Assembly: GCA_963677595.1 (NCBI GenBank) | Contig: OY782041.1 | Coordinates: 2,272,001 to 2,336,000 of the forward strand | Direction of reading: 5' to 3' | Source of the DNA: Spirochaetia bacterium | GTDB taxonomy: Bacteria > Spirochaetota > Spirochaetia > CAKZLE01 | DNA: 64,000 nucleotides | Part shown: positions 45,453 to 63,047 of the stretch, piece by piece | Numbering within the stretch: the first letter of the stretch is position 1 | How the letters are laid out: every line of letters starts with the position of its first letter | Translations under genes and position numbers: made by a program | Notes under the pieces: generated by a model | What the model was told of the DNA's origin: nothing | The model's database searches: none | Seen by the model: the letters and a program-made list of their open reading frames with translations, nothing else

Positions 45453-47345
45453 TCAGATAGCCTCGCCGGCGAACTGGCTGTTGTAGAGGTCTGCGTAGAA
45501 GCCGTCAGCATCGAGCAGCTGGTGGTGGTTGCCCTGCTCGACGATGGAGCCCTCGTTCATGACGAGGATCGTGTCGGCATCCCGGATCGTGGAGAGCCGG
45601 TGGGCGATGATGAAGTTGGTCCTGCCCTTCATGAGGGCGGCCATGGCCTTCTGGATGATCAGCTCGGTACGCGTGTCGACGTTGCTCGTCGCCTCATCGA
45701 GGATGAGGATCGCCGGGTCAGCGAGGAATGCCCGGGCTATGGTGATCAGCTGCTTCTGGCCAGACGAGATGTTCGAGGCCTCCTCGTTGAGGATGGTGTC
45801 ATAGCCTTCAGGCAGGGTCCTGATGAAGTGGTCGGCATGGGCGGCCTTGGCCACTGCATGGATCTCCTCATCCGTCGCCCCATCACGGCCGTAGGCGATG
45901 TTCTCCCGGATCGTACCCTTGAAGAGCCAGCTGTCCTGCAGGACCATGCCGAAGTGGTTACGCAGCTCCCCGCGGCGAAGGCTGCGGGTATCGACCTCGT
46001 CGATCGAGATCGAGCCGGCCTGGATCTCATAGAAGCGCATCAGGAGGTTCACCAGGGTGGTCTTCCCAGCCCCGGTGGGACCTACGATGGCGATCGAGGC
46101 CCCGGGGGCGACGCTGATGTTGAGTCCCTCGATCAGCGGCTTGTCAGGCAGGTAGCTGAAGTCCACGTCCTTGAGCTCGATAGCTCCCTTGACTGATCCC
46201 AATTCCACAGGCTGCTCGGGGTCGGTGATCTCCTCCTCCTCGTCGAGGATCTCGAAGACACGCTCTGCCGCTGCTACGGTGGACTGGAGGAGGTTGGCGA
46301 TGGTAGCAGTCTGCTGGATCGGCTGGGTGAACTGGCGCGCATACTGGATGAATGCCTGGATGTCGCCGATCTCGATGAGCCTCTTCGTCACGAAGATGCC
46401 GCCGGCGACACTGATGATCACGTAGCCGAGGCTGCTGATAGCCGTCATCAGCGGCATGATGATGCTGGATACGAACTGGGCCTTCCAGCCCACCTCATAG
46501 AGTTCCTCGTTTTTCCCTTCGAAGAGCCTGATCGACTCCTTCTCATGGTTGAACGCCTTCACCTCACGATGCCCGGTGAACATCTCCTCGACATGCCCGT
46601 TGAGCTCCCCGATGATCTTCTGCTGCTTGGCGAAGTATAACTGAGACTTCTTGATGATGCTCTTGACCACGATGAAGCTCAAGGGGAGGGTGACGATCGT
46701 CACCAGCGTGAGGATCGGCGAGATGGTGAGCATCATGATGATGATCCCGATGAGGGTGACGAAGGCCGTGATCACCTGGGTCAGGCTCTGCTGGAGCGAT
46801 GTACTGATCAGGTCGATGTCATTGGTGATGCGGGAGAGTACGTCCCCATGGCTGTGCATGTCGAAGTACTTGAGCGGGAGCTTCGTAGTCTTCTCCTTCA
46901 CCTCCTTGCGCAGGTTGTAGACAGTCTTCTGGGCCACCCCGGCCATGAGGTACTGCATGAGGAAGTTGAACAGCGATGCCGCCCCGTAGAGGCCTGCCAG
47001 GATGATGAGGATCCTCAAGATATAGGGGAAATCGATGGCTGCCCCGGGCACCCCCTGCATCTTCATCATGAACCCCTCGAAGAGGCGGGTGATCGCCTTG
47101 CCGAGGATCTTCGGGCTGAGGATGTTGAATACCGTACTTGCTGCCGCGAAGATGAGGACGATGAACAGCCTCAGCCTGAAAGGTCTCAGGTAGGCGACAA
47201 GCTTCTTGAAGGTTCCCTTGAAGTCCTTGGGTTTCTCCACCGCCCTGGACATGGCTCCGTGCATGCCGCCGTGGCCGCCGCCCCGAGCCATTTGTCCGGG
47301 TCTCATCTGTTTCATGTCGGGTTGTCTGTTCTTCTCGCTGCTCAT
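45453..47345 (-). CDS. Heterodimeric multidrug ABC exporter subunit (TM288/YfiC-like)
   Basis: TMD plus GPTGAGKT, ISSGQKQ, LDEATS and AHRLST motifs. Confidence 0.93.
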   Translation of the reverse strand: MSSEKNRQPDMKQMRPGQMARGGGHGGMHGAMSRAVEKPKDFKGTFKKLVAYLRPFRLRLFIVLIFAAASTVFNILSPKILGKAITRLFEGFMMKMQGVPGAAIDFPYILRILIILAGLYGAASLFNFLMQYLMAGVAQKTVYNLRKEVKEKTTKLPLKYFDMHSHGDVLSRITNDIDLISTSLQQSLTQVITAFVTLIGIIIMMLTISPILTLVTIVTLPLSFIVVKSIIKKSQLYFAKQQKIIGELNGHVEEMFTGHREVKAFNHEKESIRLFEGKNEELYEVGWKAQFVSSIIMPLMTAISSLGYVIISVAGGIFVTKRLIEIGDIQAFIQYARQFTQPIQQTATIANLLQSTVAAAERVFEILDEEEEITDPEQPVELGSVKGAIELKDVDFSYLPDKPLIEGLNISVAPGASIAIVGPTGAGKTTLVNLLMRFYEIQAGSISIDEVDTRSLRRGELRNHFGMVLQDSWLFKGTIRENIAYGRDGATDEEIHAVAKAAHADHFIRTLPEGYDTILNEEASNISSGQKQLITIARAFLADPAILILDEATSNVDTRTELIIQKAMAALMKGRTNFIIAHRLSTIRDADTILVMNEGSIVEQGNHHQLLDADGFYADLYNSQFAGEAI

Positions 47346-49072
47346 GCCGGCACCTCCCCTGAGAACTGGGAGTCTGAGATCTCCCGGTAGATCGGGCAGG
47401 ACTCGAGGAGTTCCTCATGGGTCCCCTTCCCGACGATCCTTCCTTCATCCATGACCAGTATCTGGTCAGCGGTCATGACCGTGCTCACCCGCTGGGAGAC
47501 GAGGATCACCGCTGACTCCTTCGTCTCTTCAAGCAGCGCCTTCCTCAAGGCCGCATCAGTCTTGAAGTCGAGGGCTGAGAAGCTGTCATCGAAGAGGTAG
47601 ATGTCCCTCTTGGCAGCGAGGGCCCTGGCGATCGCCAGGCGCTGCTTCTGGCCGCCTGAGACATTCACGCCCCCCTGGGCGATCTCGGTGTCATACCCTT
47701 CGTCCATCTTCCCGATGAAGTCCGCTGCCTGGGCGATCTCCGCTGCATGGATCACTTCCCCATCGCTTGCAGATTTCGCTGCGAACCTGATGTTCTCGGA
47801 GACTGTCCCGGAGAAGAGGATGGACTTCTGTGAGACATAGCCGATCCGTGAACGGAGCTCCTCCTGGCTCATCTTCCTGATATCCACGCCCCCGAGCTTG
47901 ATTGCCCCACTCAGGACATCATAGAAGCGGGGGATGAGGTTGATGACCGTGGACTTCCCCGACCCGGTCCCGCCGATGATAGCGGTCACCGTTCCCGGTT
48001 CGGTGGTGAATGATATGCCGGACAGGGCGGGTTCCTCAGCCCCATGGTAGCGGAAGGACACGTTCTCGAAGGTGATCTTGCCCGGTGCTTCCTTGCCGAC
48101 ATGTTCGAGGTCATCGGGATCCTTGATGGAGGGTTCGAGATCGAGGACCTCGTTGATACGCCCTGCCGATACCGAGGCTCTCGGGATCATGATCAGCATC
48201 ATCGTCATCATGATCAGGGAGAACATGATCCGCATGATGTACTGGATATAGGCCATGAGGTCACCGATCGCCATGTTCCCGCCGTCGATGCGTATCCCGC
48301 CGAACCAGACGACCGCCAGGGTCGTGAGGTTGAACAGCAGCATGATCACCGGCATGGTGACTGCCATGAGCCTGTTGACCCGTATCGATACGTCCATCAG
48401 GCTGCGGTTCGCCTCGTCGAACCGTTCGACCTCGTGTTTCTTCTTATTGAAGGCCCTGATGACCCGCACCCCGGTGAGGCTCTCCCGCAGGACCAGGTTT
48501 ATATGGTCGACCCGATTCTGGATCGCCTTGAACATCGGGAGCCCCTTGGTAGCGACGAAGGCCACGAAGGTGGCGATGACCGGTACGACCACGACGAGGA
48601 TCAGCGAGAGCGGCCCGTCCTTGGAGATCGCCATGATGACCCCGCCGATGGCCATCATCGGTGCGAAGAGCATCATGCGCAGGACCATGAAGGTCGCCTG
48701 CTGTACCTGCGTGATATCATTGGTGGTCCTGACGATCATTGAGGCGGTCCCGATCCGGTCGAACTCATCGAGTGAGTAGGACTCGATCCGGTTGAATACC
48801 TTCCCCCTGATGTTCCTGCTGAACCCTACTGCCGTCCTGGAAGCGAGGAAGCCGGCAAGTATCGTACAGATTGCCCCCCCGATGGTGACGAGGAGCATGA
48901 TGCCCCCCGTCTTCCAGATATAGGGGACATCGCCGTTGACGATGCCCACATCCACGATATCGGCCATGAGTGTCGGCAGGTAGAGTTCCGACATCGCCTG
49001 CCCGAAGACAAGCACGAAGACGGCTATCACCGAGAGGGTGAAGGGCCGCAGCTGTTTCATTAATCTAAGCAT
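47342..49072 (-). CDS. Heterodimeric multidrug ABC exporter subunit (TM287/YfiB-like, degenerate site)
   Basis: GGTGSGKS, VSGGQKQR, FDDSFSALD and SQR motifs. Confidence 0.93.
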   Translation of the reverse strand: MLRLMKQLRPFTLSVIAVFVLVFGQAMSELYLPTLMADIVDVGIVNGDVPYIWKTGGIMLLVTIGGAICTILAGFLASRTAVGFSRNIRGKVFNRIESYSLDEFDRIGTASMIVRTTNDITQVQQATFMVLRMMLFAPMMAIGGVIMAISKDGPLSLILVVVVPVIATFVAFVATKGLPMFKAIQNRVDHINLVLRESLTGVRVIRAFNKKKHEVERFDEANRSLMDVSIRVNRLMAVTMPVIMLLFNLTTLAVVWFGGIRIDGGNMAIGDLMAYIQYIMRIMFSLIMMTMMLIMIPRASVSAGRINEVLDLEPSIKDPDDLEHVGKEAPGKITFENVSFRYHGAEEPALSGISFTTEPGTVTAIIGGTGSGKSTVINLIPRFYDVLSGAIKLGGVDIRKMSQEELRSRIGYVSQKSILFSGTVSENIRFAAKSASDGEVIHAAEIAQAADFIGKMDEGYDTEIAQGGVNVSGGQKQRLAIARALAAKRDIYLFDDSFSALDFKTDAALRKALLEETKESAVILVSQRVSTVMTADQILVMDEGRIVGKGTHEELLESCPIYREISDSQFSGEVPA

Positions 49073-49090
49073 GTAGTATTCCTCATATTC

Positions 49091-49579
49091 TCATTTCAAG
49101 GTCTTGGTGAAATAATCGGTGCTCTCATCGATGAGACGGATCATCTCCCGGCTCTGCTCTTCACCCAGGTGGTCCACCAGGGAGGTGAACCCGCCCAAGG
49201 TCGAGGCGAAGGTCTTCTGGACCGTCTCCCAGCCTGCCTCTGTCATGGCTACCCGGATGACCCTCCGGTCATTCCGGTCGATCTCACGGGAGATGAAGCC
49301 CTTCTCCTCGAGCCGGTTGATGTGACCGGTCACCGTGGAGGAGTTGATCTCCAGCCGCTCCCCGATCTGCGAGGGGGTGATGAACTCCGACGGGTCCCCG
49401 CACCCCCCGGTATGGTGCGAGATCGTCCTCAGCACCATCGATTCCACCGGGCTCAGGTCCCCGAAATGGTGGAGCTTCTCGAACCATCCCGACTTCCTGA
49501 ACCGGTAGAGGGACCTGAGCAGTGCCTGGGCTGTAGCCTGGGCCCCTGTCAGTTCCTTGCTGTGCATTACATGAATCAT
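49091..49579 (-). CDS. MarR-family regulator
   Basis: TPSQI...L....STVT..INRLEEKGFI.R......DRR....TEAG. True start is ATG 49579 with AGGAG. Confidence 0.9.
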   Translation of the reverse strand: MIHVMHSKELTGAQATAQALLRSLYRFRKSGWFEKLHHFGDLSPVESMVLRTISHHTGGCGDPSEFITPSQIGERLEINSSTVTGHINRLEEKGFISREIDRNDRRVIRVAMTEAGWETVQKTFASTLGGFTSLVDHLGEEQSREMIRLIDESTDYFTKTLK

Positions 49580-49603
49580 GATTACTCCTGAAGTTCTGGT
49601 ATC

Positions 49604-49628: not shown

Positions 49629-49739
49629 AGAAGGTAAACTTCCCGGGAAGAAAAGTCAAGCTTGGAGCACATAAAAAGGCCCCTCACAGGGAAGCTGCAA
49701 GCTTCCATGCAAGGGACCTGAAATGCTACAAGTAGTTCT

Positions 49740-52364
49740 CTACAGGGAGATGCCTCCCCATACCTTGGCGCCCCAGGAGATCTCATCGTCGTCATTATCG
49801 ACTTTGTTGTCGATGTAGCCGCCGCTAATCTCGATCCCGGAGGTGAATGCCCCGATGGACTTCTTGAGCTTGAGGGTACTGTCGATGGAGAGTTCTTCCA
49901 TGGATGTCGAGCCGAAGGGGTAGGTCTCCTCCCAGCCCCCGCCGATACTGATCGTATCGAACCAGAGGTCCTTGAAGGAGAGGGTAGCCTTGATCTCCTG
50001 TACGGTGTCGATGCTTGCGTCCGTTCCCCAGTCGCGGCTGTAGCCTCCTGCCAGGCCGATCTTGTCATAGCCGATCTTGGCAGCTCCCTCTGCGCTGAAG
50101 TCCCAGTAGGTAGAAGTATCTTCTACTCCATCCACATACCGGTTCATGACATAGGAGTCATCGGTCTTGGCACTCAGCCCGAAGGAGAACTTGCCGAGCT
50201 TGAGGGTCTTGCTCTTCCAGGAACCGGTCCCGCCGATGATGAAGGCATCCTGGTAGTCGGTTGAGGTAGTATCCCCGCCGGTATCGGTGAGCTCCCAGGC
50301 GAAGGTCCCGCCCAGCTTGAAGCGGCCGAGGAGGCCGAAGCTCGGGGTGTTGATCGTGAGGCCGCCCTCATGGGTGATCTCGGGGATGATGGAGGTCGTT
50401 GCCAGCCCGTCGAGGATGTCGGTGACCATTGTCGGTATCACGTCGGGAACGATGCTCTCGACCAGCGGTACGAGGTCGTTGAGCAGGATGTCAGGTATGT
50501 TGGCCGTATCCCAGTTATACCCGAGCTCGATGCCCCAGTCCCCGAGGCTGATGTCCCAGAGTCCGCCGACCTGCTGCATGCCGGTCGTGATCGATGCCCC
50601 GAGGCTCTTGTAGCTGCCGTCGGTCTTCCGGTACCAGCCTGAGAGGCCCAGCGGGGCGATCGTCAGGTCTGCACCGTAGGTGATGCCCCAGAGACTCAGG
50701 TCCAGTGCGTCGGTAGCGATCCCCATGGAGATGGGGAAGTAGTCCAGGACGGGGAAATAGCCCTGGATCATGTTGATGTAGGTATCAATCGGGTCGAGGG
50801 CTGAGGTGTCGTCCATGAAGTCTCCAGCCAGTGACACGATGTCAGCGACATCCCCGGCGTCGCTGACGTGGAGGGTGAGTCCCGCCTCTCCTTTCAGCTC
50901 GAACCAGGGGGTGTTGAACCCGGTACCGAGACCGAGGACGAGGTTCTGTTCCGGGTCCACGATGTAGTCAGTCCCATCGATCAGCCCGTAGAGGGCTGCG
51001 ATCGCATTACTACTCTTCGCCTGCCCCCTAATAACCTCATAGGAGCCCTGGTAGTCGGCGATCAGCGACACGTTGGTCTGGAAGTACCAGAAGTCGAAGA
51101 TGTCTACCCCGACCTGGACACCGGCATACTGCCGCGGCCAGGCAGCCTCGGTCAGCCCGAGGTCGATGAGGCCGTTGGCGGCCCGTACGGAGATCAGCGG
51201 GATGTCAAGCTGGAAGAAGGAACCGCGCAGCGGCATGTTCTGTACTGTCTGGTCCTGGAAGCTTACCGTCTGGTCACCGAAGCGGTAGACGAGGACCTCG
51301 TCGAAGATCGAGAAGTCGACGAGGAACTGGTTGTTTGAGTCGAAGGTCCTGGCATGGGTCCACATGCCGTCAGTGTAGTTGTAGGCATAGGGGTTCCACA
51401 GTCTCAGGACCTCATAATAGTCTGACATGGTTGCTGAGAGGTAGGGGTAGTCGTACCAGGTAGCATAATTATCGGTGTAGGTGGTATCGATGTACTCCAT
51501 CAGGTCCCGGGTATCGCCGAGGTCTACCGAGACGGCGAGCTCTATCGGACCTGCCCCGACCATGCCGGAGGCACCAAGCCCGAAGTCGACCTCGACCTCA
51601 TGGGTGAGGCCTGCGAAGAGGTCATCCATGGCAGGCATGGTCAGGCTCGCTTCGGAACCGGTGACCTCATAGGTGATCTCAGCGTCTGCATAGTAATCAC
51701 CCTCAGCTTTGAAGAAGGGGCCGCGCTGCTTGCCGATTACCTGGAAGGAGAGTTCTTCGCTCGACTCATTCCCCGAGGCATCGGCTACGCTCAGGCTCAA
51801 GGTCGCAGTCTCGTTGGTCTGTGGGGTATAGATCCCCTGGATGAACGGCCCGAAGGAGACGACACCCTCAATCGGCTGCCCGTTTATCGAGAATTCATTG
51901 ACGGTGAGGGAGGCTTCCCCCTCAGCCGTCAGCATGATGACCTGGGGCTGCCCGATCTGGAGGATGAGTTCCTCAGGGGCGAGCAGGGTCAGTTCAGGCG
52001 GTGCTGTGTCAGCCGTGAGCGGCAGCATGGCCGATCCCTTATCAGGGATCCTCCTGATATACCCGTCGGTGCCCTTCACCTCAGTGAAGTACTGGAGGGC
52101 TTCCCCGGTAATGTAGATGCCGGGGATCGTGCCGGACCAGGTCCCGTCGGTCTGCTCGAGGTCCAGGAAGAGGGGGTCAGCCCCCTCCTGCATCAGGTAG
52201 AACCTGGCAGACTCGACGGCAGCATCCCCATCCTCCTGCATGAGCAGGACATCAAGGGACTTATTGACCGGAGCTTCTTCAGGGAGTCCTATCGTGTACC
52301 CAAAGAGGAGGGAACTCGAAACAGTTATCAGAACGATGATCAGGAACAGTCTACTTGCTTTCAT
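49740..52364 (-). CDS. Exported 874-aa protein: N-terminal Ig-like domains plus putative outer-membrane beta-barrel
   Basis: Signal peptide, DTAPPELTL and SVADASGN Ig-like motifs, many amphipathic Gly/aromatic strands, ends WGAKVWGGISL. Confidence 0.6.
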   Translation of the reverse strand: MKASRLFLIIVLITVSSSLLFGYTIGLPEEAPVNKSLDVLLMQEDGDAAVESARFYLMQEGADPLFLDLEQTDGTWSGTIPGIYITGEALQYFTEVKGTDGYIRRIPDKGSAMLPLTADTAPPELTLLAPEELILQIGQPQVIMLTAEGEASLTVNEFSINGQPIEGVVSFGPFIQGIYTPQTNETATLSLSVADASGNESSEELSFQVIGKQRGPFFKAEGDYYADAEITYEVTGSEASLTMPAMDDLFAGLTHEVEVDFGLGASGMVGAGPIELAVSVDLGDTRDLMEYIDTTYTDNYATWYDYPYLSATMSDYYEVLRLWNPYAYNYTDGMWTHARTFDSNNQFLVDFSIFDEVLVYRFGDQTVSFQDQTVQNMPLRGSFFQLDIPLISVRAANGLIDLGLTEAAWPRQYAGVQVGVDIFDFWYFQTNVSLIADYQGSYEVIRGQAKSSNAIAALYGLIDGTDYIVDPEQNLVLGLGTGFNTPWFELKGEAGLTLHVSDAGDVADIVSLAGDFMDDTSALDPIDTYINMIQGYFPVLDYFPISMGIATDALDLSLWGITYGADLTIAPLGLSGWYRKTDGSYKSLGASITTGMQQVGGLWDISLGDWGIELGYNWDTANIPDILLNDLVPLVESIVPDVIPTMVTDILDGLATTSIIPEITHEGGLTINTPSFGLLGRFKLGGTFAWELTDTGGDTTSTDYQDAFIIGGTGSWKSKTLKLGKFSFGLSAKTDDSYVMNRYVDGVEDTSTYWDFSAEGAAKIGYDKIGLAGGYSRDWGTDASIDTVQEIKATLSFKDLWFDTISIGGGWEETYPFGSTSMEELSIDSTLKLKKSIGAFTSGIEISGGYIDNKVDNDDDEISWGAKVWGGISL

Positions 52365-52378
52365 AACGGTCCTCCTCC

Positions 52379-55300
52379 TTACTCTGCAACCCAGGCTGAG
52401 CTGGTTGCATCCCAGTGATAGGTGCCTCTCGTCAGTGTGACGGAGCGGAAGGACCCAACGGACCCAGAGGTCACGATCACCGTGAGCTTGTTATTGTTTG
52501 CCCTTACCTCGATGATATCATCGGCGAACAGTGTGAGTCCCTGTGTGACCTTCTCAGCCTTGTCATCACCACGTGTGTGCCATATATTGCCGTTCACGAT
52601 TATGGCAGTCGATACTGGCTGCGAAACTGATGACGTCATCGGTACGGCGCTGGTGAACACTGTCTGCAATGGAGCCGGTGCTACTATTGGGGCTCCTCCC
52701 TGGCTTCCTGTCTGTTCAGGTGGTGGTCCTTCCTCCTCCCTGACGATCAGCTGCAGCACGTACTGTGCCTGTTCACCGGTCTTCCCGGTCGCTGTCACCG
52801 TCAGGATGTGGTCCCCGGTCGTGAGGTTCGGCAGGGATCCCGGTATGAACTGTGCCCCGGTCCCGAGGGTGCCGTCCAGCTGTGAATTCCAGCTGATTGC
52901 CTCGCCGCTGAGTTCCGTTCCGTCGGTATCAGAAGCGGTTGCCTGGAGGACGAAGTCAGCACCTGGTGTCACGGTCAGCATCGTCTCTGGCGGGTTCACT
53001 GCCAGGGTCACCGGCCCGGTGACTGCCAGCGGTACGGAGGTCTGAGCCAGGACGTTCCCGCTGCCGTCAACGGCGGCTGCGGTAATCTGCTCCTGACCAG
53101 GTGTGAGGCTGAGTGCTGCGAGGTCGAGGGTCGTTCCCGTCCCGACCGGCTCTGCGGCGGCTGCGGTATACCAGTCGACTGAGGCCCCTTCGAGGGCGAA
53201 CAGGTCGGCCGTGAGTTCGACAGAGGTGCCTGACCGCAGGTCGTAGGATGCCGGTGCCCCGGAGATCGTGATACCCGGCTGCCGTTCGAAGATGTTCATG
53301 TCATAGGTAACCGTTCTCGTTGTCTGGCCGTCTGATACGTCGAATGCCAGTTTGTAGACGCCTTCTGCCAGTGAGGCGGTAGAGACATCCACGACTACCT
53401 CAAGGATCTTGCCGTCGTCACTCTGGGTCATGGATTGGAGCGTGGAGTCAGCCCCGTCCCCATTGATCTCGGCAGTGATGGTATTTGCCGTGATCCCGAT
53501 GATGTTGAGGGTGAACTGCTGGGTGTCTGCAGCCCAGAGTATCTCATTCGGTACAGGTGTCACGATGGCTGCGGAAGCTTCGGTGATCAGCTGGATCGGG
53601 AATGACCTGGTCGTCTGTACCGTGCCGGCATCAGTGACACTGAGTTCGATAGTTGCTGGGCCGGCACTGAACCCGGAGGGGTTCAGGCTCGATGTTGTTC
53701 CAGCTGCTCTGGCAGTGGTGCTTCCCTGCTTCAGGGTCCAGCTGACTGACGGGGCTATACCTCCCGAGACCGCTGCGGTCACCAGTATGGTGTTCCCGTT
53801 CTCCACGAGGAAGGTCTTGTACCCGTTGTTCACCGTACCTGATGTGATCGCTGCCGGCTGTATGATGTTCAGGGTGACAGAGGCACTCCCCTCGAGGCCG
53901 TACTGGTCAGCTGCCGTTGCCGTGAAGGTATAGGCTGCCGGATTCGTCAGGTTGGAGAGCGTGAGGACGTTCCTACTTCCCAGGACGGTACCTGCCGCAT
54001 TGGTCCAGGTGATCTGTGGAGAAGACTGGTCGTCTGAAGCAGCTGCCGTCAGGACGATCGGGGATCCGGCAAGGTACTGTGTACCGCCGTCCGCTGATGA
54101 GATCGTCACCTCCGGTGCCGCATTCACCTCGAATGTAATCATGTCGAACTCTTCGCCTGCTGAACGTATGGCCAGCGTATGGGTACCTGCAGTTTCCGGT
54201 GCGATGAAGGTAGAGTTCGGCAGGTCTGACTCATCCAGGTACCAGGTCACGACGACTCCGGCAGGGGGTGTCCCTACCAGTTCCGGGTTCAGCTCGGCAC
54301 CGGCGTTGACCAGTTCCCCGTGCGGCCAGTAGATGCTCAGGTTCACCGGTTCGGGGATCACTGATACGGTCACATCCTCTGACCACTCGGTACCCGTGAC
54401 AGAGTCAAGGTACCTGAAGGCAACTGTGTAGTCACCCTCAGCAGTCGGCGTAAAGGATGTATCGAAGCCCTGGACTGTCTCGCCGGACCCGTCCGGCTTT
54501 GTGATGTTCCATCGAGGCAGGTCTGACGGTGCAAGCGAGAAGTCCCCTTCAAGGGCTGCGAACAGCCTGAAGGATTTCCCCGGGTACACCTCGGTATTAT
54601 CTTTCGGTGCGAGCAGGTTCACCCCGGTGATGCCTGACTTCACGGTGAAGGAGACCTGCTTCTGGGAGGTCAGCCCCATGGAGTCGGAGGCAGTGACCCG
54701 AAGGGTGTGCAGCCCGACCTGGGCTGAGGTCAGAGTCTGGCCGGAAGATACCTGTCTACCGTCGAGGTAGGTGGTATAGGAGAGGGTACCGTCATGGTCA
54801 TCGACAGCCCCGGCAGTGAAGCTCAACCGCGTCCCGACATACTGGGCAGGTTCAGCCGTGAGGGTGACCTCCGGCGGGTTGTTCGGTCTCAGGCTGATCG
54901 TCCTGCTGGTCTCCCGCTCCTCGCCAAGGTAGCTTGCGGTGAGGGTAAGGGTATAGCTGCCGTCCTTTCCTGCAGGATCGTACTGGAAGGCTTTCCTTCG
55001 CCCGATGATGGTGCTGTCAAGCTTCCAGGTGAAGGTAGCCTGGTCGGCGCCTTCCCCGGTGAACTGAAGCTTCCCGCCCGGGTTGTAGTAGATCGTATCC
55101 GCAGCAGGTGCGGTGATCGTTGGGGCATCGAATGCTATGACGTTAACCGTTACTGAGTTACTCTCGATCTCCTGTCCGTCAATGGCATAGACTGCCATGA
55201 TCTCATAGGAATCAGCAGAACTCTCCGAGAACTGGTAACTGAGGCCTGAAGAGCCGCTGTCTGACCCGTTGACATACCAGTAGATCTCATCCACGAGGCG

Positions 55301-58300
55301 CGATACCGGGACGACCGTGCTGAGCGTTCGTGCCGATACCCTGCAGGTGATCTCCTGCCCCTCGATGATGGTCACCTGATCCGCAGGTGCCATGAGGGAG
55401 AGGATCAGGTCACTCTGGACCCTTACGCCCACCGTGTCAGAGGAATAAGTCCTGCCGTTGATAGCGACAGCTGACAGGCCTATCTCATGCTCGCCGGGAG
55501 CCATTGGTGGCAGTGTTGCAGAGAGGCTGTCGATACCATCGACCTCTTCCCCGTCGACTTCCCAGTAGTAGCGGTATACGATACTCCCGGAAGCGGTATT
55601 GGCGAGTGCCCCGGACAGTGAGATGCGGTCGGTCGGTCCATAGGAAGCCCCGTCGTTCGGTGAGGCGATGGATAGAGCCGGTTCCGGGTAGGAGGTGAAG
55701 GTGACAGCCGTCGAAGCTGGCTGGACACCCAAATCCTCCCCATACGGTACAGCCGTGACGGTGACCACATGTGAGCCGGATGTCCGGGCTGTGAATTCCC
55801 TACTGTCAGTCGGTGACGCACCGCTTTCAATGGTATTCCCGTCTAGTTTCCATGTGAGGGTATCCACATAGCTGATATTCTCTATAGCCAGGCTAACGGT
55901 CACCGGCATGCCGTTCATCACGGAGGAATCTGATATCGAGGCATCGATTTGTATTACAATAGGGGTCTCATCATACGTGTTTGCCTCACCAAGGTCGAAT
56001 TGAGTTGTGGGATGAAAAGCAGCATATTGCACCGCCTCTTGAGCTTTTTTAAAAGCATCCTCAGCATAACTTGCAGCATGATCGGCAGCCTGTGAAGCAG
56101 TATGTACAGCAGACTGAGCTGTAATTTGAGACGTTGCCTGTGCAGCGTTCTCAGCGGCAGCCTGGGCAGTAGCAGCCTCAGCGGCAGCTTCCGTGGCATA
56201 CCCAGCGGCATCTTCTGCGTAGGTGCTGTCAGGCAATGCAGCCTGTGCCTCTGCGGCAGACTGTGCTGCAGCGGCAGCAGACTGGGCTGCAGCGGCAGCA
56301 AATCCAGCTGCTTCTTCAGCGATCTGCTTGAATTGGGCTGCAGCCGTATTCACCATATTCTGCAGCTCAATGGCTATCTGGGCAACAATCGCAGCCTGGG
56401 CTGCAGCCTCCTGGGCTGCGGCCTGGGCCACAGCAGCATCATGGTTTGCCGCAGCACCCTGAGCAGCCTCAGCAGCCCTTTGGGCAGTACCTTTTGCATC
56501 GGCTGCATCACTATACTTCTGTTGTGCTTCTACAAGAATACTCGTATAGCCCTGTGCTGTAGCTGATTCTAGAGCCTGAAAGGCAGTCCGCAACGACTGA
56601 GCAGCCGCATCTGCGGAAGCCTGTGCTGCAGCAGCAGCTGCATCCGCTGCTGCCCAATCGGGGTTCGCTGTCACGGTTATCCGTGCGGTCTTCTCTATGA
56701 TAGTCTCGTTGTCGAAGGAATCAGTGAACACGGCTGTTGCCGTGATGGTATAGGTACCTGTAGTATCATTGAAGGAGGGACTGAATGTGGTTCCTGAACC
56801 GGAGTCACTACTTGGCCCTGTTACTGCCCAGGTAATACTGTCGGGCTCGATTGGTAAGCCGGTCGCCTCGGCGGTGTAAGTATTCCCGATCTCGACCGGG
56901 CTTCCTGCGCTGATGCTGAAATTCGGGGTGATGACCCGTGCCGTCTGGGAAGCGGAGGTCGTCGAGACGCCCGCGGAATCAGAGGCCCTGCAGTTGATGG
57001 CCAGCGAGCTGTAGTCCCTCGTCGGGGTGTATTCGACAGAATCCCCGTTCAGGGTCGTGCTGCCGATCGTCCACCTGTATACCGTGATTTCCTCATCATC
57101 GAAGGCCTCAGCGGAAGCCTCGAAGGTATAGGTCTCATTCTTGAACATGACCGCTCCGTCCAGGTCCGTGTCGACGGACACCTCCGGGGCCTGGTGGGTT
57201 TGTGTCGTGAAGGCTCCCTCTCCCGAGAGGGAGAATGCTGACCGGTCCGAGGCATAGCGGGGGACGACATGCCATGCATAGCGTGTGCCGTAGTTCAGCT
57301 TATCTGATATCGTATAGGAGGTATCCTCCGTATTCCCGAGTTTGGTGCTCCCGAGATAGACGTCATAGGACTCTACCCAGTCATCGTTCTCGTAATCACC
57401 GAAGCTCCAGGAGAGTTCGGGCGACCAGGTATCATCCAGGTCAGGAGCATCATAGGAGACTGAAGCTGTCGGGAAGGAGAAGGTCCTGGTCTTCTCCTGG
57501 GCGATCTCTGCACCGTTCCAGTCCGTGTACCGGATCGTGAGGGTGTAGCTTGCACCTGCACGGAAATTCAGGCTGTCCGCTGAGAGGTCATAGGTAGCCA
57601 GGCCTTCATCGGTACCGCCGGGATACCCCTTGAGTCCTGTGCCGGAGGGTGAGCCGTGGGGGATAGCCTTGGAGAAGTTGACACCCGAGCCTGTGATCGA
57701 GAGAGTCGATGTGGTCTTCCTGGTGTCCTGGTAGTTCGGCACCTCTGGAAGGCTCCACTCGATCGCATATCGGTCACCGATGGTGGGGTAGGTATCAATG
57801 CTCATACCGCCGATGTTCACGACCTTGAAGGTCACATCTTCTTCGCCCCTGTCAACATCGTAGTTGTTCGGGTCGTCAGTATTATCATAATCCCGCTCGT
57901 AGATATGGAAGGCGATGGTGTAATCACCTTCCGGGAGGTTCAGGACTTCCCCGATGAAGGTACTCAGTTCGGCGGTGTCGGAAATATCGAAATTCGAGAA
58001 GTCCATGCTTCCCGGGGAGGTGCTGTGGCTTGTGCCGAAATCACCGGTGAAGCCGTCGAACCCGAAGTTCATGTAGCTTTCAAGGTTGTTCATGATCGTC
58101 GTGTTGTCGATGGTCATCGAATCCCCACTGGGGATGGTGGGGTAGAGGTTGATCGTCATCGTCCCGTCCCATTCCTGGTCTGCCGCAGAGGCATCAGCGG
58201 GGACATCTATGGTGATGCTGAAAGCGACTTTGAGTTCTGCATCTCCCGTCTGGTCATTGAGGATGGTGATGCGCAGGATCGAGTTCGCCAGCAGGGATGC

Positions 58301-58462
58301 CGGGCTGATCTTCGCATACTGCGTTGTCACGATCTCCGGGTCATTCAGGAGCTCTCTCGACCTAATGCTCCGCACCTTGGCGAACGGTGTCGCCATGGCG
58401 AATATCAGCAGGATGATTGCGACTAACTTGATTTTCAATGAGATTTTTGTACTGGTAAACAC
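52379..58462 (-). CDS. Giant exported/surface protein (2027 aa) with Fn3/PKD/Ig-like repeats and a central Ala-rich helical segment
   Basis: GTG start with GAGGGG RBS, signal peptide, repeated Y.W..DG, G.Y.(L/I)T.TA.D..G and N..P.VT motifs. Confidence 0.8.
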   Translation of the reverse strand: MFTSTKISLKIKLVAIILLIFAMATPFAKVRSIRSRELLNDPEIVTTQYAKISPASLLANSILRITILNDQTGDAELKVAFSITIDVPADASAADQEWDGTMTINLYPTIPSGDSMTIDNTTIMNNLESYMNFGFDGFTGDFGTSHSTSPGSMDFSNFDISDTAELSTFIGEVLNLPEGDYTIAFHIYERDYDNTDDPNNYDVDRGEEDVTFKVVNIGGMSIDTYPTIGDRYAIEWSLPEVPNYQDTRKTTSTLSITGSGVNFSKAIPHGSPSGTGLKGYPGGTDEGLATYDLSADSLNFRAGASYTLTIRYTDWNGAEIAQEKTRTFSFPTASVSYDAPDLDDTWSPELSWSFGDYENDDWVESYDVYLGSTKLGNTEDTSYTISDKLNYGTRYAWHVVPRYASDRSAFSLSGEGAFTTQTHQAPEVSVDTDLDGAVMFKNETYTFEASAEAFDDEEITVYRWTIGSTTLNGDSVEYTPTRDYSSLAINCRASDSAGVSTTSASQTARVITPNFSISAGSPVEIGNTYTAEATGLPIEPDSITWAVTGPSSDSGSGTTFSPSFNDTTGTYTITATAVFTDSFDNETIIEKTARITVTANPDWAAADAAAAAAQASADAAAQSLRTAFQALESATAQGYTSILVEAQQKYSDAADAKGTAQRAAEAAQGAAANHDAAVAQAAAQEAAAQAAIVAQIAIELQNMVNTAAAQFKQIAEEAAGFAAAAAQSAAAAAQSAAEAQAALPDSTYAEDAAGYATEAAAEAATAQAAAENAAQATSQITAQSAVHTASQAADHAASYAEDAFKKAQEAVQYAAFHPTTQFDLGEANTYDETPIVIQIDASISDSSVMNGMPVTVSLAIENISYVDTLTWKLDGNTIESGASPTDSREFTARTSGSHVVTVTAVPYGEDLGVQPASTAVTFTSYPEPALSIASPNDGASYGPTDRISLSGALANTASGSIVYRYYWEVDGEEVDGIDSLSATLPPMAPGEHEIGLSAVAINGRTYSSDTVGVRVQSDLILSLMAPADQVTIIEGQEITCRVSARTLSTVVPVSRLVDEIYWYVNGSDSGSSGLSYQFSESSADSYEIMAVYAIDGQEIESNSVTVNVIAFDAPTITAPAADTIYYNPGGKLQFTGEGADQATFTWKLDSTIIGRRKAFQYDPAGKDGSYTLTLTASYLGEERETSRTISLRPNNPPEVTLTAEPAQYVGTRLSFTAGAVDDHDGTLSYTTYLDGRQVSSGQTLTSAQVGLHTLRVTASDSMGLTSQKQVSFTVKSGITGVNLLAPKDNTEVYPGKSFRLFAALEGDFSLAPSDLPRWNITKPDGSGETVQGFDTSFTPTAEGDYTVAFRYLDSVTGTEWSEDVTVSVIPEPVNLSIYWPHGELVNAGAELNPELVGTPPAGVVVTWYLDESDLPNSTFIAPETAGTHTLAIRSAGEEFDMITFEVNAAPEVTISSADGGTQYLAGSPIVLTAAASDDQSSPQITWTNAAGTVLGSRNVLTLSNLTNPAAYTFTATAADQYGLEGSASVTLNIIQPAAITSGTVNNGYKTFLVENGNTILVTAAVSGGIAPSVSWTLKQGSTTARAAGTTSSLNPSGFSAGPATIELSVTDAGTVQTTRSFPIQLITEASAAIVTPVPNEILWAADTQQFTLNIIGITANTITAEINGDGADSTLQSMTQSDDGKILEVVVDVSTASLAEGVYKLAFDVSDGQTTRTVTYDMNIFERQPGITISGAPASYDLRSGTSVELTADLFALEGASVDWYTAAAAEPVGTGTTLDLAALSLTPGQEQITAAAVDGSGNVLAQTSVPLAVTGPVTLAVNPPETMLTVTPGADFVLQATASDTDGTELSGEAISWNSQLDGTLGTGAQFIPGSLPNLTTGDHILTVTATGKTGEQAQYVLQLIVREEEGPPPEQTGSQGGAPIVAPAPLQTVFTSAVPMTSSVSQPVSTAIIVNGNIWHTRGDDKAEKVTQGLTLFADDIIEVRANNNKLTVIVTSGSVGSFRSVTLTRGTYHWDATSSAWVAE

Positions 58463-58552
58463 AGTGTCCCCCTCTGTCAGCCAGTTGGGAAGAACAGGGA
58501 TGTATTAATGTATGAGATCAACTTGTTGTGCAAAGCAGGTTGACTACCTACC

Positions 58553-58647: not shown

Positions 58648-58839
58648 CTAGCTTATATGCTGCACCCGTCCCACATTGCCGTCGGTGAGCCGGACCTTGA
58701 TGCCGTGCGGATGGAAGCTCGATTTCGTGAGGATGTCCTTCACCACACCGTGGGTGAGCTTCCCTGTCCGCTGGTCCTGCTTCAGGACGATGTCCACCTC
58801 GAGCCCGGGGTGTATGCTGCTGCGTTCTTTACCATTCAT
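58648..58839 (-). CDS. YwbE family protein (DUF2196)
   Basis: V.IVLKQDQRTGKLT.GVVKDILT.S..HPHGIKVRL.DG.VGRV. Confidence 0.92.
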   Translation of the reverse strand: MNGKERSSIHPGLEVDIVLKQDQRTGKLTHGVVKDILTKSSFHPHGIKVRLTDGNVGRVQHIS

Positions 58840-58980: not shown

Positions 58981-60099
58981 ATGATCACAGTACGAGAAGC
59001 GACGACGAAGAGGGACATCAACCGGTTCTTCACCTTCCCGATCGAATTATATAAGGATAACCCCTATTACGTACCCGGGCTCATCTACGATGAGAAGGGG
59101 ACCTTCAATAAGAAGAAGAACCCGGTCTACGAGCATGCCGAGAGCATCCTCTTCCTGGCGGAGCGAGACGGCGAGGTCGTCGGGCGTGCCGCGGGGATCA
59201 TCAACCACAAACTCAACGAGCACCAGGGGATCAAGGATGTCAGGCTCTCCCGCTATGACATCATCGATGACCTCGAGGTATCCCGTGCCCTGATCGACAA
59301 GGTCACCGAGTGGGGGAAGTCAAAGGGGATGACCCGTATGATCGGGCCCATGGGGTTCTCGGACCTCGACAAGCAGGGGCTGCTCATCGAGGGGTTCGAC
59401 CAGCTCGGGATGTTCATCACCTTATACAACCATCCCTATTACAAGGACCATCTCGAGGCACTGGGCTTCGAGAAGGAGGTCGACTGGGTCGAGTTCAAGA
59501 TCTTCACCCCGGAATATCTCGACCCCAAGATCGAGCGGGTCACCGAGATCGCCATGAAGCGAAACGGCTATAAGCTGCTTACCTTCGAGAAGAAGAAGGA
59601 TGCCATCCCCTATGCCCGCAGGGCCTTCTATATGTACAACGAGGCCTTCGCCAAGATCTACGGCTTCTATCCCCAGACCGATGCCCAGATCGAGGCACTG
59701 ATCGATGAGTTCATCATGATCGTCACGGCTGAGTACTTCTTCATCGTGACCGACAAGGATGATGAGGTCATCGGCTTCGGCCTCATGGTACCCTCCCTCT
59801 CGGAGGCCGTGCAGAAGTCGAAGGGAAGGCTATTCCCCACCGGCCTGCTGAGGATCAAGAAGGCGCTCAAGCAGCACTCCATCCTCGACATGTATCTCAT
59901 CGCCGTGAAGCCCGAGTACCTCGGGCGCGGGGTCAATGCCCTGATCCTCAACGCGGGGATCAAGAAGGCGATGGAGAGCGGGGCCTCATTCGCCGAGACC
60001 GGGCCGGAGCTGGAGGACAACATGAACGTCCAGACCCAGTGGAAGACCTTCAAGACCGAACAGCACAAACGAAGACGGTGCTACAAGAAAGATATCTAG
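58981..60099 (+). CDS. YghO-like GNAT-fold protein
   Basis: F..FP..LYKDNPYYVP, VGR.AGI, GPM, GLLIEGF, YN.PYY, AVKPEY.GRG and ELEDN motifs. Confidence 0.85.
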   Translation: MITVREATTKRDINRFFTFPIELYKDNPYYVPGLIYDEKGTFNKKKNPVYEHAESILFLAERDGEVVGRAAGIINHKLNEHQGIKDVRLSRYDIIDDLEVSRALIDKVTEWGKSKGMTRMIGPMGFSDLDKQGLLIEGFDQLGMFITLYNHPYYKDHLEALGFEKEVDWVEFKIFTPEYLDPKIERVTEIAMKRNGYKLLTFEKKKDAIPYARRAFYMYNEAFAKIYGFYPQTDAQIEALIDEFIMIVTAEYFFIVTDKDDEVIGFGLMVPSLSEAVQKSKGRLFPTGLLRIKKALKQHSILDMYLIAVKPEYLGRGVNALILNAGIKKAMESGASFAETGPELEDNMNVQTQWKTFKTEQHKRRRCYKKDI

Positions 60100-62429: not shown

Positions 62430-63047
62430 ATGCCCTATCCACCGTGGGTCATGAAACATAAACAGAAAGGCATGTATGTCAACAAGGTCAATGATTCGAC
62501 CTATCGTATCTATCGCGGTCATTCAGAACGGGTGAAAGGCACCAAGAAAGTCAAACGTATCGTTGATGAATACATCGGTACCATCACCGAGAAAGATGGT
62601 CTGATCCCCACAAAACCCAAGATCAAGGGCGAGGTGCGTACCCTTCGTAGTGGAGGATATGCGATCCTCTGGCGATTCTGTCGAGCCAACCTGCAGCGCA
62701 TACCTCAGCTCATGGGAGATGATGCGGGTGCTGCCGTACTTGCTTCTGCGATACTTCAGGTGATCTATGGGGAGGCTTCTTCTTTTCTGTATAGCTGTGA
62801 TTGGGTGAGTATGGCCTATCCTGATGTCACCTTCCCCCTGACACCTGTGCTGGAGGCAGAAGCGAGGCGAGTGGCAACGGCCTTGCGATCCACACTCACG
62901 GCGGTTTTCGGGGAACAGGCTTCACTGGTGATGCATGCTGCTGCCTTCATCACCAGGGTCTGGGTAAATGGGCAATGGGTCAATGCCGTCGTGCCGCAAG
63001 CATGTAGGGAGCTGGCAAAGACCTATGATTTTCGTTGGGAGGTGTAA
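62430..63047 (+). CDS. IS-associated protein resembling the N-terminal region of IS1634-like transposases
   Basis: YP.WV.KHK.KG......Y..Y...S.RV.G.K......YIG.IT..DG.IP pattern (recalled). No DDE domain seen. Confidence 0.6.
   Translation: MPYPPWVMKHKQKGMYVNKVNDSTYRIYRGHSERVKGTKKVKRIVDEYIGTITEKDGLIPTKPKIKGEVRTLRSGGYAILWRFCRANLQRIPQLMGDDAGAAVLASAILQVIYGEASSFLYSCDWVSMAYPDVTFPLTPVLEAEARRVATALRSTLTAVFGEQASLVMHAAAFITRVWVNGQWVNAVVPQACRELAKTYDFRWEV

Follow-up and report, generated by a model that had tools for sequence, protein, structure and literature searches.

A giant Ig-like repeat protein and a predicted outer-membrane barrel form a conserved two-gene envelope module in Spirochaetia

Introduction

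Most known surface proteins of spirochaetes are lipoproteins or small barrels; by what route a much larger, non-lipidated protein might reach the cell surface, and what could hold it there, is the question raised by two adjacent genes found in a 64,000-nucleotide stretch (hereafter, the window) of a Spirochaetia bacterium genome (GenBank assembly GCA_963677595.1, contig OY782041.1, positions 2,272,001 to 2,336,000 of the forward strand). The upstream gene encodes a giant secreted protein of 2027 amino acids (aa), the downstream gene an 874-aa partner predicted to be an outer-membrane β-barrel. The analysis reported here indicates that the pair is a real, conserved and undescribed two-gene envelope module, to which a function can be assigned conditionally: the barrel may be the dedicated exporter and anchor of the giant, displayed as a surface stalk, the two having derived from a trans-envelope signalling module, a reading to which we give equal chances of being right or wrong.

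A conserved two-gene unit

The open reading frame (ORF) of the giant (P0001) occupies positions 52379-58462 of the minus strand, with a GTG start and a purine-rich, ribosome-binding-like GAGGGGG at 58468-58474; reading frame and Pfam together describe a secreted Ig/Fn3/PKD-repeat protein. The ORF of the partner (P0002; signal peptide, two Ig domains and predicted barrel) follows on the same strand at 49740-52364 with an ATG start, and the 14-nt gap between the two (52365-52378) contains the ribosome-binding-like GGAGGAGG. Each product opens with a hydrophobic N-terminal stretch devoid of a lipobox Cys, the cleavage sites being placed by eye and from the alignment; ORFs and N-terminal hydropathy agree with the two-gene operon and two signal peptides described in the first-pass annotation, made from the sequence alone. 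The terminator-like hairpin past the barrel gene (49679-49701, minus strand, 40-60 nt after the stop) is a consensus match only, and hairpin-type sites also arise in shuffled sequence (9 found versus 4.7 expected).

A single-protein query over 400 genomes of the phylum returned no match, profiles being needed for detection; co-occurrence was examined in 401 Spirochaetia genomes with profiles of the barrel and of the N-terminal module (N-module) of the giant. The barrel profile matched 25 genomes, 12 of them (13 copies) near full-length and 13 weakly, in the Ig part only, and the N-module profile matched 13 (12 strongly, one weakly). Both occur together in 11 genomes and each occurs alone in one further genome, at a contig break; in G005, the barrel and the C-terminal half of the giant lie at a contig end, in G498 (55% complete) the giant runs off the contig, and G480 harbours two copies of each gene. 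The co-occurrence anticipated for the two genes is thus found, one to one, in this sample. The carriers fall in three families plus G498, with a patchy distribution (e.g., 3/38 genomes in family f12); the pair is rare, being present in about 3% of the sampled Spirochaetia, and the named records seen are metagenome-assembled. Viral contigs and plasmids were also searched, and nothing relevant was found.

The giant lies directly upstream of the barrel in every one of the 12 genome copies that can be assessed (a contig end truncates another) and in 14/14 assessable metagenome loci out of 15, one of which has 120 bases upstream, two being frameshifted and several duplicating each other or a genome; the genes flanking the pair change from locus to locus. 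Since this gene order is kept down to about 25% identity, the pairing is not due to chance. For 13 pairs, the N-module and the barrel give concordant distances and trees (r 0.90; one barrel row is a same-cluster stand-in). In two loci (L028 and L029), both genes, and the neighbouring genes too, are split into many frames, most likely through assembly errors. In G005 only, the barrel gene is directly followed by a gene for a 400-aa secreted, strand-rich protein (L012:4451-5653), which has no Pfam match and looks like a FadL/PorV/TraF-type barrel.

The partner protein

The partner passes no cut-off in Pfam or NCBIfam. Its AlphaFold2 model, built on a 31-row alignment (mean predicted local distance difference test score, pLDDT, 83.7; predicted template modelling score, pTM, 0.62), displays a signal helix, two Ig-like domains (residues 23-212; 51729-52298, minus strand) and then 26 strands, counted by hand from the DSSP list, running from residue 218 to the end (49743-51728, minus strand). 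Hydrophobic and polar residues alternate in most strands, and short turns alternate with long loops, which follow the odd strands and several of which bear helices; by the usual rule, this alternation assigns the Ig domains and the two ends of the chain to the periplasm. The model shows no plug domain. All the top matches in structure searches are outer-membrane barrels, as the first-pass annotation would have it; the longest is MtrB (PDB 6r2q chain B; Z 16.9, root mean square deviation 7.3, 429 aligned residues, 10% identity), while LptD is absent among the best 50, which does not speak against a relationship. Because smaller porins tie with MtrB in Z, the search fixes the class of the fold, not the family.

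Conservation is unevenly distributed: columns conserved to 90% or more in an alignment of 36 rows number 46 of 382 in residues 218-621, versus 6 of 212 in residues 662-874. The conserved positions are concentrated in strands 5-13 and include long-loop residues predicted to face outward, which suggests that one side of the barrel, with its loops, carries a conserved function. The barrel is acidic (net charge -64). The last residue is L or F in 29 of the 36 rows, the last strand is amphipathic and a bamA gene is present in the genome, features expected of a protein inserted by the BAM machinery. The first-pass proposal presupposed an outer membrane and Bam machinery, and indeed Omp85/BamA scores over the cut-off in the host genome (G000) and in 5/5 other pair-carrying genomes.

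A search of 1.84 billion representatives with the partner returned 25 matches (E≤0.001), the named records among which are Spirochaetota hypothetical proteins; a language-model search placed unnamed clusters from Fibrobacterota, Bacteroidota and Acidobacteriota beside the barrel (0.95-0.96), as a lead only. The barrel family is uncatalogued in the libraries scanned, and word-based searches of one open-access library found no description of the pair or of the barrel family.

The giant protein

The giant opens with a predicted Sec signal peptide without lipobox (residues 1-28; 58379-58462, minus strand, as are all the following segments), whose cleavage site is taken from the alignment. The mature protein begins with a basic peptide (residues 29-42; 58337-58378), a candidate barrel-docking signal: in an otherwise acidic region, its first ten residues carry a net charge of +1 to +4 in 18/18 homologs, in all of which Arg36 is invariant. 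Modelled on its own, the peptide is unstructured (pLDDT 40 for the first 10 residues), and it appears to show the pattern expected of a motif folding on a partner. Domain 1 (57815-58336) is modelled as a seven-strand sandwich with a helical insert and an LPEG motif; two Fn3-like domains follow (57191-57814), of which domain 2 bears conserved PxxPxY, KGYP and FRxG motifs. Their best fold match is an Fn3 tandem (Z 10.4, root mean square deviation 5.0, 169 aligned). All matches of the N-module in an atlas search stay below 0.9 and are leads only. No paralog of the basic peptide, of domain 1, of domain 2 or of the barrel was found in the 4.33-Mb host genome.

The remainder comprises two PKD/Ig-like domains (56663-57190; sequence pattern and BLAST matches in homologs), an Ala-rich, likely helical segment (56018-56662; about residues 600-815, Ala 93/216) unmatched in the other giants examined, a stalk of about 12 Ig/PKD-like domains recognised by Pfam and Trp spacing (52727-56017), a Pro-rich linker (52631-52726) and a small C-terminal β domain of 83 aa (52382-52630). 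The Pfam matches (BiPBP_C, PKD_3, Big_7 and PKD-type Ig units) are generic Ig/PKD families, NCBIfam gives none over cut-off, and a sequence search of solved structures gives weak Ig/Fn3 matches only. All the parts that the first-pass annotation had named, including its LPEGDYTIAFHIYE motif (residues 176-189), could be located.

The constant part of the giants consists of the signal peptide without lipobox, the basic peptide, domain 1 with its LPEG motif and the two Fn3-like domains; total length ranges from 1,030 to 5,524 aa. Of 14 other full-length giants, four carry the C-terminal β domain (two of them belonging to the training set of the profile), the remaining 10 ending in a Gly/Pro-rich or helical tail; being absent from most giants, whose C-terminus varies, this domain cannot be a required sorting signal. 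It is dispensable, and the conserved, partner-specific part of the protein is the N-module. Neither an LPxTG motif nor a second, internal hydrophobic helix occurs in any of 15 giants, and no peptidoglycan-binding Pfam family is matched in the giant of the window.

Ala-rich or helical segments, located mid-protein in the window's giant, are C-terminal in some relatives (the L013 and L019 giants; also L002:2493-3000), a placement that suggests module shuffling. The 5,524-aa giant, with 18 Cys, is found in G480 (L071:1670-18241), and the shortest, of about 1,030 aa, adjoins an intact barrel in G730 (L070:3711-6800).

A related four-gene operon

Searching the phylum with profiles revealed barrel homologs of about 640 aa, in which a signal peptide and a single Ig domain precede a strand-rich C-terminal region, in 8/17 genomes of a family (f20) belonging to another class. 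Compared by hhalign, whose E-values are pairwise, they match the partner alignment at 97.4% (E 1.3e-11, 402 columns) and, over the barrel part alone, at 41.8% (E 2.7e-4, 244 collinear columns, approximately strands 4-15), the controls reaching 0.4% (reversed) and 1.9% (usher). In the six loci fetched, the barrel gene is always followed by a gene of about 694 aa (the one scanned encodes CHASE2, adenylate/guanylate cyclase and TPR domains) and is preceded in 5/6 by a FecR-type gene (two scanned, both over the PF04773 cut-off); before the latter lies a gene for a secreted protein of 355-386 aa (complete in three), whose N-terminal domain matches domain 1 of the giant (hhalign 69%, E 4e-5; controls ≤0.4%). 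The C-terminal domain of the giant matches, weakly, the first part of the f20 FecR proteins (14%, E 0.002), and DUF7354 scores weakly in both. These matches relate the two ends of the giant and the barrel to three genes of the f20 operon, arranged in the same order. The FecR resemblance noticed at first pass at the giant's C-terminus survives in part: PF04773 is not matched, while the weak match to the N-terminal part of the f20 FecR proteins stands.

CHASE2 was found in none of five pair-carrying genomes (controls positive), with no BLAST match in the pair loci or in the host genome, and PF04773 likewise in 0/5; the f20 genome G114 has five FecR matches. The conserved, uncharacterised f20 operon (L103:1542-7624 in G114; also L104-L108 and L093), composed of genes for a secreted N-domain/Fn3-like protein, a FecR protein, the Ig-barrel and a CHASE2 cyclase with TPR, is by itself a candidate for trans-envelope signalling. 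An association of CHASE2 cyclases with FecR-domain outer-membrane proteins in gene clusters is outlined for a Campylobacterota cluster (PMC9239204), and in Sinorhizobium CHASE2 cyclase signalling is described as acting through a barrel, in the NsrA-CyaK pair (PMC13001267). The genes of the f20 barrel homologs are similarly flanked by a FecR gene on one side and that of a CHASE2 cyclase on the other, a likeness in gene context; the lineage of the window differs in having neither CHASE2 nor a full FecR protein in the genomes tested.

Relation to known systems

A Sec-exported substrate whose gene is paired with that of a dedicated outer-membrane barrel is common to two-partner secretion (TPS; type Vb), to the Salmonella ZirT/ZirS system as outlined in PMC2270342 and to the present pair. 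The predicted 26-strand barrel with Ig domains is, however, neither Omp85/POTRA-like nor intimin-like, the substrate is an Ig/Fn3 chain without TPS domain, and export, demonstrated there, is proposed here. Identity of the partner with TpsB (POTRA domains and a 16-strand Omp85 barrel) or with a 12-strand autotransporter, inverse autotransporter or ZirT barrel was rejected, no Pfam/NCBIfam family being matched and the model giving Ig domains and 26 strands; so was identity of the giant with TpsA (TPS domain, β-helix), its N-module being a sandwich plus Fn3 domains with no match to a TPS model. The absence of TPS, POTRA, autotransporter and type IX secretion system (T9SS) C-terminal sorting signatures, read from the sequence at first pass, holds in Pfam and NCBIfam, and the last of these absences argues against a T9SS cargo. 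With the chaperone-usher ushers (FimD, PapC), the partner shares a large barrel, periplasmic domains, an Ig-fold cargo and a GD...RG motif placed similarly among the strands (FimD 264, P0002 363). Fimbrial ushers have 24 strands; the partner model has 26 and no plug, chaperone and pilin genes are missing from the neighbourhood, and the cargo is a single polypeptide. Usher homology was rejected, hhalign giving ≤1.9% against four E. coli ushers.

The MtrAB porin-cytochrome complex resembles the pair in its 26 strands (here predicted), in a barrel without plug of its own and in a partner gene directly upstream; it differs in that the Z score is tied with those of many 18-22-strand barrels, the giant, which takes the place of MtrA, lacks a CxxCH heme motif and the barrel protein has extra Ig domains. 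With no CxxCH in 7/7 giants and no Pfam match, membership of the MtrB/PioB family was rejected despite the predicted 26 strands. LptD, also described as a 26-strand barrel (PMC13721041), was rejected on account of its N-terminal β-jellyroll, replaced here by two Ig domains, of the patchy distribution of the pair (12/401) and of the lack of a Pfam match.

The TANFOR proteins of Bacteroidota (TIGR02542), presented in PMC7073777 as large, Sec-exported and proposed T9SS substrates, resemble the giant in having Fn3 after an N-terminal domain and a C-terminus that varies; as far as that account goes, they differ in that here TIGR02542 is not matched, no toxin domain or immunity gene is recognised and a barrel gene is attached. 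TIGR02542 is absent at E≤10 from six pair-carrying genomes, NCBIfam finds it in none of 10 N-modules, and in 351 genomes of the phylum no protein exceeds its cut-off, four weak matches lying in unrelated proteins; the TANFOR resemblance first suggested is thus not supported by the family HMM, although the position of the domain is alike. DUF6029 (PF19494), whose barrels are treated in PMC9603273, is a language-model neighbour at 0.93 only and was rejected, with no match at E≤10 in five genomes.

A possible mechanism and its alternatives

The exporter-and-anchor reading may be set out as follows. The two genes form one conserved unit, as indicated by sequence comparison; both products would cross the inner membrane by Sec, and BamA would insert the barrel, as the signal peptides, the last strand and the bamA gene suggest. 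The constant N-module of the giant, the basic peptide with its invariant Arg foremost, would then dock on that half of the barrel which is acidic and conserved (strands 5-13 and loops), as their matching conservation and charge suggest, and some 17 sandwich domains in a chain of variable length, with an exchangeable C-terminal tip, would project outward as an adhesin or spacer, in keeping with the length variation and the lack of another anchor. The unit would descend from a four-gene barrel-FecR-CHASE2 module, the N-domain and FecR-like genes having been fused around an Ig stalk and the cyclase lost; the homology on which this descent rests is of moderate strength, and its direction is the probable one. 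This reading is favoured because the giant is without any other anchor or evident route, because the genome contains no second client for the barrel, itself without a plug, and because stalk length has a five-fold range and the signalling output of the relatives is missing. No secretin was found in five pair-carrying genomes (control genomes positive), so that type II export is unavailable in those five. A domain measures about 4 nm and the periplasm tens of nm; a length of 1,030-5,524 aa is therefore easier to reconcile with a surface stalk than with a fixed span of the periplasm. Binding, export, surface location and adhesion are, at every step, proposals drawn from sequence and model.

Several points weigh against this reading. 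Neither the basic peptide nor domain 2 is present in the f20 proteins, so that these two cannot be the ancestral barrel contact, and the nearest homologous system, with a CHASE2 cyclase and a FecR protein as neighbours, points to signalling. Adjacent genes share their history anyway, so that matching trees testify to co-inheritance, not to binding; a complex prediction of barrel residues 213-874 with giant residues 29-331, leaving out the barrel's Ig domains and the other domains of the giant, scored 0.00 and gives no verdict either way. FecR-type domains are normally periplasmic, which would put the C-terminus of the giant inside. The barrel model has its own weaknesses (the pTM of 0.62, the many unrelated barrels tied in Z, a closure that is presumed), no chaperone or energiser gene is linked to the pair, and the SprA search gave no match in control genomes either, so that the T9SS route is not validly excluded.

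The giant might instead never leave the cell, its N-module plugging the barrel from inside and its Ig chain spanning an enlarged periplasm until the tip meets the inner membrane or the cell wall. The periplasm-side Ig domains of a barrel without plug would suit such an arrangement, as would the example of the 26-strand MtrB and LptD, plugged by their partners MtrA and LptE, and the weak FecR likeness of the giant's C-terminal domain; the five-fold variation in length, the loss of the tip or its exchange for Gly/Pro-rich tails in 10/14 other full-length giants, the lack of a wall-binding or membrane anchor and the conserved barrel residues in long loops predicted to face outward make it unlikely. 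A sensory role, in which barrel and giant would perceive a signal from outside the cell and pass it on to an inner-membrane receptor encoded elsewhere, after the manner of the f20 operon and of NsrA/CHASE2, draws on the same-order homologs of three modules in an operon ending in an adenylate/guanylate cyclase and on the associations outlined in PMC9239204 and PMC13001267; it is judged quite improbable, given that CHASE2 and the FecR Pfam domain are both absent from five pair-carrying genomes, that no signalling gene is kept next to the pair and that only about 60 residues of a FecR-like protein are matched, which most giants lack. That the barrel is a large uptake porin, fed with polymers collected by a giant exported otherwise, according to a SusC/SusD-like logic, would agree with its acidic charge (net -64) and with porins and TonB receptors ranking as high as MtrB in fold searches; this is very unlikely, since the barrel has neither a plug nor a TonB-type domain, no genes of catabolism or transport are kept nearby, the giant is not a lipoprotein and no secretin was found.

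Should the exporter-and-anchor reading hold, the pair might exemplify a new two-gene secretion class, in which a plug-less 26-strand barrel, converted from a signalling module, would recognise a basic peptide and thread and anchor chains of up to 5,500 residues, the look-alike barrels of Fibrobacterota, Bacteroidota and Acidobacteriota belonging to the same superfamily; this wider proposal is tentative, and we lean against it.

Neighbouring genes

Downstream of the pair, on the same strand, lie genes for a MarR regulator and two ABC-exporter halves (45453-49600); they were rejected as parts of the unit, their adjacency not being kept elsewhere. Upstream of the giant are a small DUF2196 gene (58648-58839, minus strand) and a divergent GNAT gene (58981-60099, plus strand), a homolog of which is likewise divergent upstream of the pair in G002 (L010). 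A 205-aa ORF without Pfam match (62430-63047, plus strand) is found near the lower-GC end of the window. Elsewhere in the host genome (G000 C1, 3199854-3242873 and 2880443-2885032), several very large ORFs of 1,150-1,970 aa have lipoprotein-like N-termini; tblastn detects no similarity between them and the giant.

Significance

New in this analysis are the remote homologs from a different class of the phylum, arranged as an operon for an N-domain/Fn3-like protein, FecR, Ig-barrel and CHASE2 cyclase; this link provides a concrete case of an uncharacterised barrel family common to a signalling module and to what is presumed to be an export module. With its N-terminal peptide and one half of the barrel conserved, the pair lends itself to direct tests of the proposed mechanism. 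A non-lipidated giant with a large barrel of its own would, if true, represent a route to the spirochaete surface outside the catalogued secretion types.

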